Below are positions 3,957 to 49,945 of a stretch of 64,000 bases of DNA, in pieces. The position numbers and the translations under genes are program-made. Numbering within the stretch: the stretch's first letter is position 1; each line of letters opens with the position of its first letter. The notes beneath the pieces are model-generated. The model searched no databases and was not told the origin of the DNA. It saw nothing but the letters and a program-made list of their open reading frames with translations. The stretch is taken from the NCBI RefSeq assembly GCF_054482595.1, contig NZ_CM137008.1. One strand, given 5' to 3'.

Positions 3957-5540
<1,584 letters not shown>

Positions 5541-5544
5541 CAGA

Positions 5545-5621
5545 AAAGAAAAAGGCCACTCGTGAGTGGCCAAAATTTCATCTCTGAATTCAGGGATGAT
5601 GATAACAAATGCGCGTCTTTC
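5545..5621 (-). ncRNA. micA: MicA (SraD) small regulatory RNA
   Basis: reverse complement reads GAAAGACGCGCATTTGTTATCATCATCCCTGAATTCAGAGATGAAATTTTGGCCACTCACGAGTGGCCTTTTTCTT, in the gshA-luxS intergenic region. Confidence 0.9.
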
Positions 5622-5689
5622 ATATACTCAGACTCGCCTGGGAAGAAAGAGTTCAGAAAATTTTTAAAAAAATTACCGGAGGTGGCTAA

Positions 5690-9743: not shown

Positions 9744-10079
9744 TTATATAATCGCCATCACTTTCCAGGCGAGCCCATAGGCCAGCGCACTAAGCAGTGT
9801 TGGGATGATAATGCTGCGTGTTTTATAGAAACTGGCACCCAGTACCGCGAAGCCGACCAGCGTGGGCACGAAACGGCGTGTATCGTGCATCACTTCTGGT
9901 GCGGTAGAGACAACCAGCAGAGCGCATATCGAGGCGATGCCAATGGTGTCGAGCAAAATACCTACCGCGCCACGTTTGGTTGGGCGGGCATTACCCACAC
10001 GCAGGCGCAGCGGCAAATAGCGGAAGCAATAATTCGCTGCGCCAACCAGTAACCCAAGCAGCAGAACCTCATAGCTCAT
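9744..10079 (-). CDS. ygaH: L-valine exporter small subunit (AzlD-like)
   Basis: 111-aa membrane ORF overlapping ygaZ. Confidence 0.88.
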
Positions 10080-10806
10080 CGGGCGCTCCTTGCCAGAATG
10101 CCTGGATTAACGCAGTGAGGCAGCCACAGACAATGCCTGCCAGAATGGCGACGGGAATAGAAAATAGCGTTACGCCTGCAAGGGCACCAACTAACGCTGC
10201 GGTAACGCAAAGAGATTGTTTGCGCTGGAAAGAGGCGAGCAGGAAACTCATAAAGAGTGCCGGAAGCATAAAACCTAATGCTGCTTCAACGGCGGGATAA
10301 CCTTGCAGCAAGCCGCTGCCGGAGAATGCCCCTATTACCGTACCAAATACCCACGATGACCATGAACTGAAGGCAATGCCGATCATCCAGTTCTCGCTCC
10401 AGCGGCGATTATTGCGTACCAGTTTTGCGGTGGCGGCGGCAAAAACCTCATCCGTCAGGCCAAACGCCCATAGGGCGGTTTTCGATTTTTGCAGACGCTG
10501 AATAATACGGCTACGCAGTGACGGGCCATACAACACATGGCGAACATCCATTGCCATGACGGTCAGTGCAGCAACCCACAAACTACTCCCGGCTGCCAGC
10601 ATCGCGGTAATGACGAACTGGCTCGCGCCTGCATAAATGATGCAGGAGAAAAAAACGCTTTCGAGAGGAGAGAATCCCAGACGGGTCGCATTCAGACCGA
10701 ACGCAAAGGCCACCGGAATATAACTAATAACAATCGGTAAACTGTCTTTGCATCCTTCCATGAAGGTCGCCGAACCAGGAGCAGGCTGTGGAGTAGGGCT
10801 TTCCAT
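10069..10806 (-). CDS. ygaZ: L-valine exporter large subunit (AzlC-like)
   Basis: 245-aa membrane ORF. Confidence 0.88.
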
Positions 10807-10929
10807 AGAGTGTACGCTTAACGATTGTTAATATTATAAATAGACTGAATGAATATCTTAACCTTATCAGACTGATGGGCTTCTTAACACCCTTATAAGT
10901 GTAAAGCCACGAAAACGGTTGCTGATTGC

Positions 10930-12114
10930 TTAATTTGCGGCTTCCTGACGATGAAAACCTCGCCACCAGACCAGTAAGTTAACCAGGGCAATTGTCGCGC
11001 CAGCCAGACAAACGCCAGCCCAACCGCCATGTTGCCAGGCTGAGGCTGAAATTAGCGAACCGGCGGCACCGCCAATAAAGTAGCTGGTCATGTAACCTGC
11101 AGTCAGGCGATTACGCGCATCAGGATGTATTCGATAAATTACCGTCTGGTTAGTGATATGCACGCCCTGTACGGTGAGGTCCAGCACCAGAATGCCGATA
11201 ATCAACGCCAGTACGGAAGTGTGACCAAACCAGATTGCCAGCCATGAAAGTAATAGCAGCAGCAGACCGAAAGTTGTGGTGTGGTGCGATTTGCCCTTGT
11301 CGGCAAAACCGCCCGCCGGACGAGCGCTCAACGCTCCGGCAGCTCCCGCAAGCCCAAACAGACCAATGACACCATCGCTGTAGTTAAAAGGTGGAGCGGC
11401 AAGCAAAAAGGCCATTGAGGTCCAGAGAATGCTGAAGTTGGCAAAGGTCAGGCAGCCCAGCAACGCGCGGGTGCGCAGGATCTTATTGCTGATAAACATA
11501 CTGAAAACGGAACCCAACAACTGTGGGTAATTGAGGTGGGTTTCTGATTTCATTTGTGGCAGACCACGCCATAATGCCAGCGCCATCAGTGCCATTAACA
11601 CCGAGGCAACCCAAAAGACGGTGCGCCAGCCGCCGAGGTTTGCCAGTAACCCGGCAACGGTTCGTGCCAGCAAGATCCCCAACAGCAGACCGCTCATAAT
11701 GGTGCCAACCACTTTGCCGCGTTTGTCCGGTGAAGCCAGCGTCGCTGCCAGTGGAACCAGAATTTGTGCCACGACTGAGAATAAACCGGTTAATGCCGTA
11801 CCGAGGATCATCATCGCCAGCGACTGACTGCTGGCGGTAATCAACATGCCGCATGCCGCCAGTAAGGTCATCGAGACAATCAGGCGGCGGCGTTCAAACA
11901 TATCACCGAGGGGAACAAGAAACAGTAGACCTGCGGCATAGCCCAACTGCGCGGCGGTAACAATAAAGCCTGCCGAACTGGCGGAAAGGGAAAAGTTACG
12001 CGCGATGGTGTCGAGCAATGGCTGGGCGTAATAGTTACTGGCGACCGCCAGACCGGTGGCGATAGACATCAGCACGATCAGCGCCGGGCTAAGCTCATGA
12101 TTAGGTTTAGTCAT
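10930..12114 (-). CDS. ygaY: MFS transporter (intact ygaY-type)
   Basis: 394-aa 12-TMS-like ORF between ygaZ and proX. Confidence 0.8.
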   Translation of the reverse strand: MTKPNHELSPALIVLMSIATGLAVASNYYAQPLLDTIARNFSLSASSAGFIVTAAQLGYAAGLLFLVPLGDMFERRRLIVSMTLLAACGMLITASSQSLAMMILGTALTGLFSVVAQILVPLAATLASPDKRGKVVGTIMSGLLLGILLARTVAGLLANLGGWRTVFWVASVLMALMALALWRGLPQMKSETHLNYPQLLGSVFSMFISNKILRTRALLGCLTFANFSILWTSMAFLLAAPPFNYSDGVIGLFGLAGAAGALSARPAGGFADKGKSHHTTTFGLLLLLLSWLAIWFGHTSVLALIIGILVLDLTVQGVHITNQTVIYRIHPDARNRLTAGYMTSYFIGGAAGSLISASAWQHGGWAGVCLAGATIALVNLLVWWRGFHRQEAAN

Positions 12115-12215
12115 TATTTTTGTTCATCAGGTGATGATTAAGCTGGAAATCAATAATAGCGGATGTTGATGAATATGGGATGAAAGATAGATTGTTGAAA
12201 TGTGCGGTGTGGTTT

Positions 12216-12296
<81 letters not shown>

Positions 12297-12305
12297 GAAT
12301 AAAAA

Positions 12306-13298
12306 TTACTTCTGCGCTGCCAACGCCTCATTCACCCAGCCATCGAACTGTTGCTGGTGGGCTTTGATCCAGCCATCAACGTGGCCCTGAATATCGCCTT
12401 CTGAGGCTTTGCCGTCATGCATAATGGCGTTCTGGGCGTTAATATCTGCCACTGGCAACTGCATAATGGCAAACAGTTTCGCTGCTGCCGGGTTTTTCTC
12501 GGCCCAGGCTTTATTGGCAACGATATGCATGGTGCTGACCGGGAAGCCGTAATTCGCGCCATTCGGCAGTTTGGTATCGGCATTTTTATCGCCCGGCAGT
12601 GCAGAGAACGGCACCTGCAACCAGACCACATCTTTCCCTGGCTTCAGCTCATTACTCACCCAGTACGGCGTCCAGGTGTAGTAAAACACCGGTTTGCCCT
12701 CTTTGTAACGACTGATGGTGTCAGCCATCATCGCCGCGTAGTTCCCCTGATTATGCGTCACGGTATTGGTCAGTTCATACGCGGCAAGCTGGTGGTTGAT
12801 CGCCCCTTCGCAGCCCCAGCCAGGGTTACAGCCAGTCAAATCCGCTTTACCGTCGCCGTTGGTATCGAACAGTTTGGCGATCTTCGGATCTTTTAGTTGT
12901 GCGATGTTGGTGATTTTGTACTGGTCGGCGGTTTTCTTATCGATCAGGTAACCCTGTGCCGCGCCGTTAACAAATACCCCTTCACGATAAAATTTCTTAT
13001 CGCCACCGGCAGCTTCGTACATGTTGTCATGCAGTGGCGTCCAGTTCACGGCGGTGAAGGTTGCATCGCCGGAAGCAAGCGAGGTGTAGCCAACGTTGTA
13101 ATCCACTTCGCTGGGTTTATTGACGGTATAACCTAATTTCTCCAGCGCACGACTGACCAGCAGTGTCTGGAAGGTTTCTTCGGTGATGGTGCTTTGAACT
13201 GGATTAACAGTAATGCCTTTGCCCGGCAGATCGGCAGCAAAAGTTTGTGTAGAGATAAGCGTGGCAAACGCTGTCGCAAAAAGTACGCTATGTCGCAT
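12306..13298 (-). CDS. proX: glycine betaine/proline ABC transporter periplasmic binding protein ProX
   Basis: 330-aa ORF with signal peptide [21 protein letters not shown]. Confidence 0.94.
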
Positions 13299-45461: not shown

Positions 45462-45480
45462 GGCGTGGCGGGGAGAGCAT
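45462..45480. other. cos-like site (P2/P4 cohesive-end-like 19-mer)
   Basis: GGCGTGGCGGGGAGAGCAT matches the recalled P2/P4 cos GGCGAGGCGGGGAAAGCAC at 16 of 19 positions. Confidence 0.45.
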
Positions 45481-45690
45481 TGCGCGCGGAGTGGGTGTTT
45501 TATTTTTTGTATGTCACATAAACTTAAGGTATGCAGTACGTAGCTAGTTTCACTAATACTGGGACGAAAAGAATGGTGCGTTTGTAAAAATGTATTTTAA
45601 TTTTTGGATTGTGATACAGAGTAAATTTCATTTAATTTTGTATTTTAATTGCGGTAAGCTATAACAAACTTGAAAAGGAATTATAATCAC

Positions 45691-47352
45691 ATGAGGTATG
45701 TTGAAAATATGAAAATTCTAGTAACTGCACCTTCAAGAAAAAATCACCCAAAAAATAATGTATTGTATGATTTTATATTGCAACAAGATGATTGGAATGA
45801 TTTTAGTTTTATCACTAAGTATCATTTATACATTACAACGAAACTTACTGGTCTTGATGAAATAGAGTATGCTGGGGTTGTTAAAATTATAAAAAAAGAT
45901 CAGTCTGAAGCTGATTACTACATGGTTGAAGAAGGCGAGTTTTCATATTTGAGTGACGAGTTTTGTTCTGTGGGACAATCTCTTGATTATTATGGGAGGC
46001 TCTCTGAATTGGGGAGTGAAATTTGTGAGGGGATATTGACATCATTACGCGACATTAATATGTTTGATTATGTTTCTGAGGGTTTCAAAAATGAAAGAGC
46101 TTGGGAACGTTCTATCATGAGAGACTTAAATAATGATGATGATATTTTTATTCTTCCAAAGTTTATAATAAAAAATCAGTTCTCGGCTATACCTAGTATA
46201 GACATGAAGTTTTCATTTATGTATTCAGGAATGATTAATACTCTTTCGTTTGATTTCGATTCAATACAATATGGATATTTTGAAAGTGAAAAACTACCAT
46301 GTAGAATGTCCGTAATTGTAGGCCGGAACGGTTGTGGGAAGAGTACAACATTGGCAAGACTTTCTAGGGTTGCTTATTCTTCAACTCAGGACAGAAAAAA
46401 AGAACAGATAGCCAAAATTGGTGAAATTCTTCCAGAGGGATTAGGTTTTCCGAAAATAATCAACCTTTCATACAGTGCTTTTGATAGTTTTCAAATACCC
46501 GGGTGTACTTTTAAAGAAAAGAAACAGCTAAGGCAAGACATACTTGATGGGAAAGGTAGGTATATATATTGCGGAGTCAGGGATGTTGGTGCTGAATTGG
46601 ATTATGTATTGGCTAATGTAGATGAAAACAATATGGATATAGAGTTTATTACATTAGATAGGCAAGAGAGAACCATATTAAAACCTCTTGAAGTACTTAG
46701 TGAAGAGTTTTATGGTGTCTTGATAAAAATACATAAAGATAGTGATAAGTGGAATTTGTTTAATAAAGTGATGATGAAGTTGAGAGAAGAGGTTTCATTA
46801 TCTGAAATTATTGATGAAATCTTTAAAGATGATTTTATTCTTAAATCTAAAGAATATTTTCATAGGTTGAGTACAGGGCATAAATTTGTTTTGCATTCGA
46901 TGGCGCATATTTTGTTGTATATTGAAAAAAGATGCCTTGTTTTATTTGATGAGCCTGAAACTCATTTGCACCCGCCATTGCTTGCGGTTTTAATGAGCGC
47001 TCTGAGAATTGTTTTGAACGAAGTCGATGCTTTTGCTATTGTTGCTACTCATTCACCTGTGGTAGTACAAGAAACATTAAGTAAAAATGTTAATGTTATA
47101 ACTAGAAATGGGGAGTTTACTGATTTTCAACGACCTGAAATTGAAACTTTTGGTGAGAATATTGGAGCAATAACATCATCAGTATTTTCATTAACGACTC
47201 AAATAACTGATTATCATGATGAATTAGACAAGCTAATAATAGAATATAAAAATAATAATAATCCATTAGATGACATTGAAAAATGTTTTGATACAGGTCT
47301 TAGTACACAAGCAAGGTCTTATGTAATATCTAAATTAGCGGTAAAAGGATAA
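45691..47352 (+). CDS. ABC-type (AAA15/AAA21, OLD-family-like) ATPase with about 200-aa N-terminal domain of unknown function
   Basis: Walker A GRNGCGKST, signature-like LSTGHK, Walker B LVLFDEPETHLHP, H-loop ATHSP; SD AAGGA 11 nt upstream of ATG. Confidence 0.8.
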   Translation: MRYVENMKILVTAPSRKNHPKNNVLYDFILQQDDWNDFSFITKYHLYITTKLTGLDEIEYAGVVKIIKKDQSEADYYMVEEGEFSYLSDEFCSVGQSLDYYGRLSELGSEICEGILTSLRDINMFDYVSEGFKNERAWERSIMRDLNNDDDIFILPKFIIKNQFSAIPSIDMKFSFMYSGMINTLSFDFDSIQYGYFESEKLPCRMSVIVGRNGCGKSTTLARLSRVAYSSTQDRKKEQIAKIGEILPEGLGFPKIINLSYSAFDSFQIPGCTFKEKKQLRQDILDGKGRYIYCGVRDVGAELDYVLANVDENNMDIEFITLDRQERTILKPLEVLSEEFYGVLIKIHKDSDKWNLFNKVMMKLREEVSLSEIIDEIFKDDFILKSKEYFHRLSTGHKFVLHSMAHILLYIEKRCLVLFDEPETHLHPPLLAVLMSALRIVLNEVDAFAIVATHSPVVVQETLSKNVNVITRNGEFTDFQRPEIETFGENIGAITSSVFSLTTQITDYHDELDKLIIEYKNNNNPLDDIEKCFDTGLSTQARSYVISKLAVKG

Positions 47353-47357
47353 TACAT

Positions 47358-48203
47358 ATGTGGACACTACCTTTACCAGATGATGCGGATAGAATGAGCG
47401 AGTTATTAACCGCTTTAACGTATAAAAATGGAAATCCTAAGTATGCTTTAACACAAGATGAAAAGGATAAAATTGAAACTATTTATACTTTATATCACGA
47501 TCGTAAAGCAACTCCCTGTGCTGAATTTTTAGCAGAGGAAATAAGTGATGAAACCCAAAATGCTATAAAAACAGCTTATTCAGAAGTGCAAATAAATGGA
47601 CGGCTTTCAACCCTTCGCTCAAGGATTTTATTAAGTTCTAAAAAATGCCCATTATGTGGGATCGAATCATCAACCGACCTAGATCATTATCTTCCCGAAT
47701 CAATATATAAATGTCTCGCAGTATATTCAAGAAACCTGATACCGACCTGTCATAAGTGCAATAATAAAAAAAGAGCTGGTGTAGCAGAAAATGGAGTTGG
47801 ATTTATTCATGTGTATTATTTTGATGAGCCCGATGGTGTATTTTTCGTTGCCAATACTGAAATGATAGATGGTGCTTTAGTAATTGATTTTAATATCAAT
47901 ATGATCGAGGGTATGACTCGAGAGGTATATGATTCATTATGCTTTCAAAATAGAGTTGTTAACCTAAATGAAAGGTTAAAGATGGAAGCGAATGATTTTT
48001 TAGGGGGGCTCTATACTTCACTTGAAGAAACATATAATTCTGCAGGCCAAGAAGGATTAAGATTATTTCTAAAAAGAACTAGGGATGACTATACCAGACG
48101 TTATGGGCTTAATCATTGGAGAAGAGCATTGATAGATAGTCTATCCGATAATGTGGAGTTCCTTGACGCTGGTTTTATTACTGCCTTAGGAACTCCAGAG
48201 TGA
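47358..48203 (+). CDS. HNH endonuclease-domain protein (281 aa)
   Basis: CPLCG...DLDHYLPESIY...NLIPTCHKCNNKK HNH/zinc-finger motif; start 5 nt after the ATPase stop. Confidence 0.8.
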   Translation: MWTLPLPDDADRMSELLTALTYKNGNPKYALTQDEKDKIETIYTLYHDRKATPCAEFLAEEISDETQNAIKTAYSEVQINGRLSTLRSRILLSSKKCPLCGIESSTDLDHYLPESIYKCLAVYSRNLIPTCHKCNNKKRAGVAENGVGFIHVYYFDEPDGVFFVANTEMIDGALVIDFNINMIEGMTREVYDSLCFQNRVVNLNERLKMEANDFLGGLYTSLEETYNSAGQEGLRLFLKRTRDDYTRRYGLNHWRRALIDSLSDNVEFLDAGFITALGTPE

Positions 48204-48205
48204 GT

Positions 48206-49399
48206 TTACTGGTGGGGATGAATATGTCGTCCCCACCAATTCATCAATTCAATTCTTGCGTGTAAATATGTTGAGCGATTGTAGGCTTTTCGTACTTCAT
48301 TTCTATCTGAATGAGCAAGAGCAGCCTCAATTACATCAGCATTAAAACCGGCTTCATTCATTGCCGTACTTGCAATCGAACGTAAACCATGTGCAACCAA
48401 TTTCCCACCATAACCTATTCGCTTAAGTGCAGCATTGGCAGTTTGGCTATTCATAGGTTGTTTTGGATTATTTCTGCTGGGAAAAACATGTTCTCGATGT
48501 GCACTAATAGGTTTCATCACATCCAGAATTTCTAATGCTTGTGGTGATAAAGGAACAATGTGTTCACGCTTAGCCTTCATTCGTTCGGCGGGAATCGTCC
48601 AGAGTTTGGCATTGAGATCGATCTCTACCCACCGAGCACCAGAAGCCTCAGAAGGGCGCACTAGGGTCAGAAGCTGCCATTCAATAAGACAGCGAGTCGG
48701 AACAGACAGATTCGACATGACCAGGGAACGCATAAGCTTAGGTAATTCTTCTGGCCGTAGCGTGGGCATATTTTGCTTTTTGGGTTTCTCAAAAGCCATT
48801 CCTACACCCGAAGCCGGGTTGGCATCTATCAGACCGGTATTAACCGCATAAATCATTATTTCGTTAATACGCTGAACTAGGCGACGAACCGTCTCTAATG
48901 CGCCACGTGCTTTGATTGGCTCCAATGCTTCAACAATCGTTCTGGCCTTTATATCCTGAACGGGCATCGCACCGATTGCCGGGAACACGTCTTTATCCAA
49001 AGAACGCCAAATATCCTTTGCATAATCCTCTGTGACACTTCTGCTTTTAATCTGGAACCAGTTAGCGGCCACAGTTGAGAAAATGCTGTCTAACTCAATC
49101 TGGCGTTGTGCTGACGCTTGCTCCTGTTGCTGTTGTGGATCCATGCCTTGCGCGAGCGTGGTTAAGTGCTGGTCGCGTATCTGACGAGCTGCTGCGAGTG
49201 TAAGGGCAGGGTATGAGCCGAGACTCAAATTTGTGCGGCTGCTGCTTCCCGGTCGTTGATAACGGAAGCGTCAGAGTTTTTTACCGGAGGTTTTGACGAG
49301 TAAGAACAGGCCATCACCATCATGCAGGGTGAAGTCTTTTTCGCGGGGTTTCGCTTTGAGGATTTCGTTGTTAGTGAGGGGGCGTGTAATGCGCGCCAT
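48206..49399 (-). pseudogene. intA: P4-type tyrosine integrase with in-frame TGA at codon 43
   Basis: N-terminus MARITRPLTNNEILKAKPREKDFTLHDGDGLFLLVKTSGKKL then TGA then RFRYQRPGSSSRTNLSLGSYPALT... in the same frame; stop sits where related integrases have Trp (TGG). Confidence 0.75.
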
Positions 49400-49449
49400 G
49401 TCTGGATCCCTTCCATAATTGGTACACGTTTAATGGACCACAGTATAGC

Positions 49450-49477
49450 GTGTACCTAAACGTGTACCAATTTTCTC
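49450..49477 (+). repeat. 28-bp direct repeat (int-proximal copy)
   Basis: GTGTACCTAAACGTGTACCAATTTTCTC identical to 42613-42640. Confidence 0.8.
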
Positions 49478-49514
49478 TGGATTTAGCCGGATGTTCTCGG
49501 ACAACGACAGACAC

Positions 49515-49548
49515 AAAAAAGCCCGCAGGGCTTGTGCCGTGCGGGCTT
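49515..49548 (-). terminator. intrinsic terminator downstream of ssrA
   Basis: minus-strand hairpin GCCCGCACGGCACAAGCCCTGCGGGC followed by TTTTTT. Confidence 0.7.
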
Positions 49549-49582
49549 TCTGTACTTCACCGGACGTATCCGGATCATCATT

Positions 49583-49945
49583 TGGTGGAGCTGGCGGGAG
49601 TTGAACCCGCGTCCGAAATTCCTACGTCCTCGGTACTACATGCTTAGTCAGTCTTTACATTCGCTTGCCAGCTGCGGACGGACACGCCACTAACAAACTA
49701 GCCTGATTAAGTTTTAACGCTTCAACCCCAGGCAGGGCCTCCACGCGATCTCTTTTGGGTTTGACCTCTCTTGATCCCCGTCCTAAGAGCGGAGGCTAGG
49801 GAGAGAGGGCTCTAAGCAGGTTATTAAGCTGCTAAAGCGTAGTTTTCGTCGTTTGCGACTATTTTTTGCGGCTTTTTACGAGGCCAACCGCCCCTCGGCA
49901 TGCACCTTGGGTTTCGCAAATCCCGTCGAATCCAGAATCAGCCCC
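49583..49945 (-). ncRNA. ssrA: tmRNA (SsrA), 363 nt
   Basis: reverse complement begins GGGGCTGATTCTGGATTCGACGGG and ends ...GCGGGTTCAACTCCCGCCAGCTCCACCA. Confidence 0.97.

Follow-up and report, generated by a model that had tools for sequence, protein, structure and literature searches.

The intact ygaY of an Escherichia coli strain is very probably the ancestral form of an MFS transporter gene broken by a 7-bp deletion in the K-12 laboratory lineage

In this study, we analysed a 64,000-nt stretch of DNA (hereafter the window; NCBI RefSeq assembly GCF_054482595.1, contig NZ_CM137008.1) and found that it carries a gene that is in all probability the ancestral, intact ygaY, encoding a 394-residue, 12-helix MFS transporter that K-12 lost by a 7-bp deletion, most likely through slippage. 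ygaY is a core gene of the Enterobacteriaceae, and the window strain keeps what almost all E. coli have. It is K-12 that is atypical at this locus, which elsewhere, in nearly every E. coli, holds a conserved gene under selection. The existence of an intact ygaY beside a broken K-12 copy is itself already known, as a routine annotated strain difference.

The initial annotation had described a complete open reading frame (ORF) of 394 aa between ygaZ and proX. The ORF listing bears this out, with an ATG start, and assigns the frame to the minus strand, which had been left unstated (Table 1); it runs for 394 codons and its first stop is codon 395. The position between ygaZ and proX was confirmed from the RefSeq annotation of XH990, whose sequence is 100% identical to positions 10730–12314 of the window and in which the ORF is annotated as "MFS transporter" (WP_021557117.1). 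Given this identity at the DNA level, WP_021557117.1 should equal the product of the window gene. Among 5426 complete E. coli genomes, megablast found the region 10730–12314 in 5425; only 25 DNA records are at least 99% identical to it. The ORF is not a chance one, as its product matches the Pfam family MFS_1.

Table 1. Features at and around ygaY in the window
Feature	Position	Strand	Basis
ygaZ, L-valine exporter subunit; downstream neighbour of ygaY	10069..10806	−	Annotation in XH990
ygaZH sigma-70 promoter, TTAAGA-17-TATAAT, in the ygaY–ygaZ spacer	10833..10861	−	Consensus scan, 10/12 matches
Intact gene at the ygaY position, MFS transporter	10930..12114	−	ORF; Pfam MFS_1; RefSeq CDS WP_021557117.1 in XH990
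Two perfect tandem copies of a 7-bp unit, GCGGCAT GCGGCAT (gene nt 256–269, codons 86–90)	11846..11859	−	Alignments; K-12 has one copy
Paired REP elements (our reading of the palindromes) in the proX–ygaY spacer	12219..12296	−	Rfam naRNA4 (RF02564; CssrE), 76.4 bits vs cut-off 59.5
proX, binding protein of the glycine betaine/proline ABC transporter; neighbour upstream of ygaY	12306..13298	−	Annotation

The initial annotation's view of ygaY as interrupted at this place in K-12 is correct: in MG1655 (NC_000913.3), the 1178-bp ygaY (b2681), lying between proX and ygaZ, is annotated as a pseudogene. It has the same locus and orientation as the window gene, with the order proVWX–ygaY–ygaZH–emrRAB kept, and a pairwise alignment gave 98% identity over 1178 aligned bases with a single 7-bp gap, so that the K-12 gene is neither intact nor identical. 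The two copies differ by 2 non-synonymous and 28 synonymous substitutions, and because only 2 of the 30 differences are non-synonymous, the inactivation in K-12 is probably recent. Whereas the window gene is uninterrupted through its 394 aa, the K-12 copy lacks the 7 bp at gene nt 256–262, meets a stop after 88 codons (codon 89) and contains 14 in-frame stops in all, with the remaining 318 codons open in another frame. The b2681 locus was formerly split into ygaX and ygaY, presumably on account of this second open frame. The DH10B copy is identical to that of MG1655 and is flagged as "MFS transporter, frameshifted". K-12 ygaY has been treated as a pseudogene or a cryptic gene (PMC10656529; bioRxiv 10.1101/072470).

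The missing bases correspond to one unit of the tandem repeat listed in Table 1, which was read from the alignments, being shorter than the minimum length of the default repeat search. The BL21 allele has a repeat of its own at this site, GGCGGCA GGCGGCA, one base out of register with that of the window. Since losing one unit from either repeat gives the K-12 sequence, a slipped-strand deletion is likely. The K-12 laboratory lineage lost one copy (codons 86–88), most likely by replication slippage, and its YgaY is cut short after residue 88, close to where the third hydrophobic segment begins.

A 70-base probe spanning the K-12 deletion junction was searched in 5426 complete E. coli genomes. 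The junction was perfectly matched in 353–354 genomes, and the 7 bases were kept (gapped match) in about 5050 of the 5402 matching genomes. When the perfect matches were evenly sampled, 60 of 60 carriers looked like laboratory strains of the K-12 lineage, among them MG1655, BW25113, C600, J53, JM109, TG1, MC4100, S17-1, EPI300, and O16:H48 isolates; many carry K-12 in their names, and the remainder were recognised by strain name or by a size like that of K-12. An intact 1185-bp coding sequence is present in BL21, O104:H4, O157:H7, and MS8345, and the products of these four alleles are identical to that of the window gene at 388–392 of 394 residues (BL21, WP_000165699.1; O157:H7, WP_000165714.1). 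At codons 88 (11851–11853 of the window) and 263 (11326–11328), the allele shared by the window and XH990 encodes Cys and Ser, whereas Gly stands at both places in BL21, O104:H4, O157:H7, and MS8345; Cys88 is found in Salmonella too. It is the Cys88 codon that makes the GCGGCAT repeat perfect in the window allele.

E. fergusonii and E. marmotae (both 97% identity), Citrobacter (92–93%), and Salmonella (92%) have orthologues of 394 aa, and the E. albertii matches are 391–393 aa long with 95% identity. At the three outgroup loci compared (E. fergusonii, Citrobacter, and Salmonella), ygaY lies directly after proVWX, and the 14 bases at the repeat site are diverged, non-repeat, and in frame, with the 7 bases present. 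The 1178-bp form is carried neither by close non-laboratory relatives of K-12 nor by the outgroup species. Given that the outgroup genes are full length and that about 5050 E. coli genomes are undeleted, the intact ygaY appears to be ancestral and the deletion specific to the K-12 lineage. The opposite polarity, with the K-12 form ancestral and a 7-bp duplication having created or repaired the long ORF, would account just as well for the fact that the 7 bases of the window are an exact tandem copy (GCGGCAT twice), but it is refuted by the full-length frame that the outgroups maintain over a non-repeat site, and the long form is found in E. coli genomes of all lineages while the short form is confined to K-12 laboratory strains; we assign it next to no probability. 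The initial annotation had spoken of a small strain-level difference. This is real with respect to K-12, but an intact ygaY is the norm of the species, and it is the K-12 laboratory lineage, not the window strain, that departs from it.

In E. coli S115 (NZ_CP158441.1; positions 1586–2751 of the extracted locus), ygaY has been inactivated once more, independently of K-12: a 19-bp deletion bounded by TTA microhomology spans exactly the repeat region hit in K-12 (−7 bp), and RefSeq marks the coding sequence as frameshifted. These two independent events may mark the short GC-rich repeat at codons 86–90 as a recurrent deletion hotspot, although we hold this to be even less probable than the osmoadaptation role considered below. 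Recurrent, phase-variation-like slippage as a general phenomenon was considered and rejected, since all 60 sampled junction carriers look K-12-derived and most E. coli alleles have no perfect repeat at the site.

By its sequence, YgaY is clearly a predicted MFS secondary transporter, and its membership of the superfamily is unambiguous. It matches Pfam MFS_1 (PF07690) in two stretches (141.1 bits vs a cut-off of 33.4, E = 5.3e-41), with weaker matches to Sugar_tr and to MFS_4, the latter spanning residues 31–381. In a Kyte–Doolittle hydropathy analysis, 11 hydrophobic 19-mers reached a score of 1.3 or more, and a weaker twelfth segment, below this threshold, probably lies at about residues 336–358. 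The segments are arranged in a 6+6 layout around a polar central loop (about residues 185–220), and the PRK03545 profile, which describes a 12-helix MFS protein, aligns to residues 11–390. The earlier description of the product as 12-helix-like therefore stands, with 11 clear segments, the inferred twelfth, and full-length alignments to 12-helix profiles. MFS motif A (consensus G-x-L-a-D-r/k-x-G-R-r/k) belongs to the loop joining helices 2 and 3 and is found in this loop of YgaY at residues 68–80 (PLGDMFERRRLIV), where the translation fits an L-G-D-x-F-x-R-R-R-L core. The "GP..GG" motif of DHA1 type was not seen in the fifth hydrophobic segment when the sequence was judged by eye. As in the superfamily at large, YgaY would be expected to work through an alternating-access cycle powered by the proton gradient.

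The dN/dS ratio of the window ygaY (Nei–Gojobori) was 0.024 in the comparison with K-12 and 0.055 in that with E. fergusonii. The comparisons with Citrobacter and Salmonella, both at a dS of about 1, gave 0.041 and 0.045, respectively. These low ratios (0.02–0.06) indicate that ygaY is under strong purifying selection. A consensus scan found no sigma-70-like promoter on the coding strand of the proX–ygaY spacer, and no obvious Shine–Dalgarno sequence was seen by eye before the ATG; as a result, expression of ygaY may be weak or may need read-through from proVWX. In K-12, the ygaY transcript is reported to be low and to go up after hyperosmotic shock, a rise put down to proVWX read-through, and some ChIP data sets place H-NS on the ygaY region (PMC10656529). 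The lack of a promoter-like site upstream on the coding strand, the weak ribosome-binding context, the low K-12 transcript with its mainly read-through increase upon osmotic shock, and the H-NS occupancy would all be expected of an ORF that is intact yet silent in every strain, the frameshift in K-12 then being without consequence. We consider this improbable, because an unexpressed ORF would not stay intact over a dS of about 1, whereas ygaY has kept both its low dN/dS and its exact length of 394 aa across Escherichia, Citrobacter, and Salmonella. The reading to which we commit is that the intact ygaY probably encodes a functional, proton-coupled MFS transporter kept under selection.

The literature search found no transport assay, expression data or other experimental study of intact YgaY. 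Searching NCBIfam with YgaY gave 27 weak matches, every one far below its curated cut-off, so that no named subfamily was reached. YgaY is not a member of the PRK03545 sugar (efflux-type) equivalog (NF002921; 63.1 bits vs a cut-off of 401), of the Bcr/CflA (DHA1) efflux family (TIGR00710; 48.9 bits vs 200.9), or of Cmx/CmrA (NF033135; within the 49–63 bits scored by this efflux-type group, whose cut-offs are 200–401). Among the named NCBIfam families, near-full-length alignment was obtained only with these three, all of efflux type. A sequence search of the PDB returned only GlcP, Qdr2, and EmrD (E = 2e-8 to 9e-4). Given that all subfamily scores fall far below their cut-offs and that the PDB matches are weak, the substrate is not assignable from curated families. 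The E. coli paralogue YnfM (b1596), a putative MFS protein, aligns to residues 1–390 of the 394 (26% identity, E = 9e-21) and is clearly homologous, alike in length and hydropathy layout; however, it is a distant paralogue at another locus whose own function is poorly defined, and it gives YgaY no substrate assignment. An exhaustive search of representatives of 1.84 billion proteins yielded 1153 clusters of homologues at E ≤ 1e-30, which indicates that the YgaY subfamily is large. In the separate homologue search that gave the enteric orthologues, the top match, a 596-aa ENA metagenome protein (P0001), scored 1078 bits with only 72% identity to the 394-aa query, which suggests a partial internal duplication, or else an assembly or gene-call artefact.

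Taking the profile alignments together, the best guess is weakly in favour of YgaY exporting a small organic solute. Export is preferred because full-length alignment was seen only with efflux-type MFS families, and YnfM also aligns over the full length. It is possible, although we hold it to be the less likely direction, that YgaY is instead an importer (a solute:H+ symporter), perhaps one related to osmoprotectants, as it always follows proVWX. The best partial matches do include symporters, namely the aromatic acid:H+ symporter family TIGR00895 and GlcP, of solved structure, but they cover the N-terminal half, which is generically alike across MFS families. Likewise, ygaY keeps its place directly after proX in four genera, one of them being Salmonella, which lacks ygaZH, and the ygaY transcript is raised by hyperosmotic shock; yet five homologues with 46–57% identity lie in five unrelated neighbourhoods, and none of them adjoins a proU-type system. 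This argues that the adjacency to proX is synteny inherited among enteric bacteria rather than a conserved functional linkage, and that it gives no hint of function. Deriving the substrate from gene neighbourhood was rejected for the same reason, the contexts of these five distant homologues being all unlike. Export of a small organic solute remains our preferred direction.

A more specific role, in which the intact YgaY would take part in osmoadaptation, for example as a valve that releases, or a carrier that exports, a compatible solute or some metabolite related to one, is in our judgement very improbable. If true, it would entail expression by proVWX read-through under hyperosmotic shock, and it would have been overlooked because the physiology has all been done in K-12, in which ygaY is broken.

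The hexamers of the ygaZH promoter (Table 1) are the same as those listed for a constitutive RpoD promoter in the spacer between ygaY and ygaZ (PMC3946193). In Escherichia and Citrobacter, ygaZH lies between ygaY and emrR. In the Salmonella locus (positions 5185–5682 of the extracted contig), proVWX–ygaY is followed directly by emrR, and ygaZH is absent. An obligatory ygaY–ygaZH operon was thus rejected, and the documented promoter of ygaZH together with the Salmonella arrangement suggests that ygaY is not tied to the valine exporter. On the other side of the gene, a 37-base stretch of the proX–ygaY spacer (12215–12251 of the window) has a median of 9 matches per E. coli genome.

Being regarded as a "neutral" pseudogene, ygaY is in wide use in K-12 for integration or as a control (bioRxiv 10.1101/072470). 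Among the E. coli papers examined, ygaY figures as a K-12 pseudogene, an integration site, or an anchor of H-NS bridges. Engineering designs from K-12, or models of chromatin in the proU region, would on being moved to other strains meet a downstream gene that is probably functional there. Knowledge of MFS transporters as such is unchanged by the ygaY result.

Elsewhere in the window, one tRNA-Ser and four tRNA-Arg genes lie downstream of csrA, and gshA and luxS are separated by the gene for the MicA sRNA (83.9 bits); the tRNA cluster and MicA sites (1777–2639 and 5550–5621) are standard core features. A variable island (34593–49945) extends between tRNA-Ile (34593–34668) and ssrA, encoding tmRNA (49583–49945, minus strand). 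By the XH990 annotation, it includes a ypjA/EhaD autotransporter, an AbaSI-family restriction endonuclease, an AAA ATPase paired with an HNH endonuclease, and also an integrase pseudogene, and we read its primase and Psu pseudogenes as remnants of a P4-type satellite. Up to 49.6 kb, no more than 6 mismatches separate the window from XH990; from 49614 onward the two diverge. Beyond this point, XH990 carries RloB and AAA ATPase genes, an integrase, and an apparent lambdoid prophage, while the window continues with ssrA and then core recN, nadK, ffh, and dgcN, where it is 100% identical to, for example, O157:H16 Santai.
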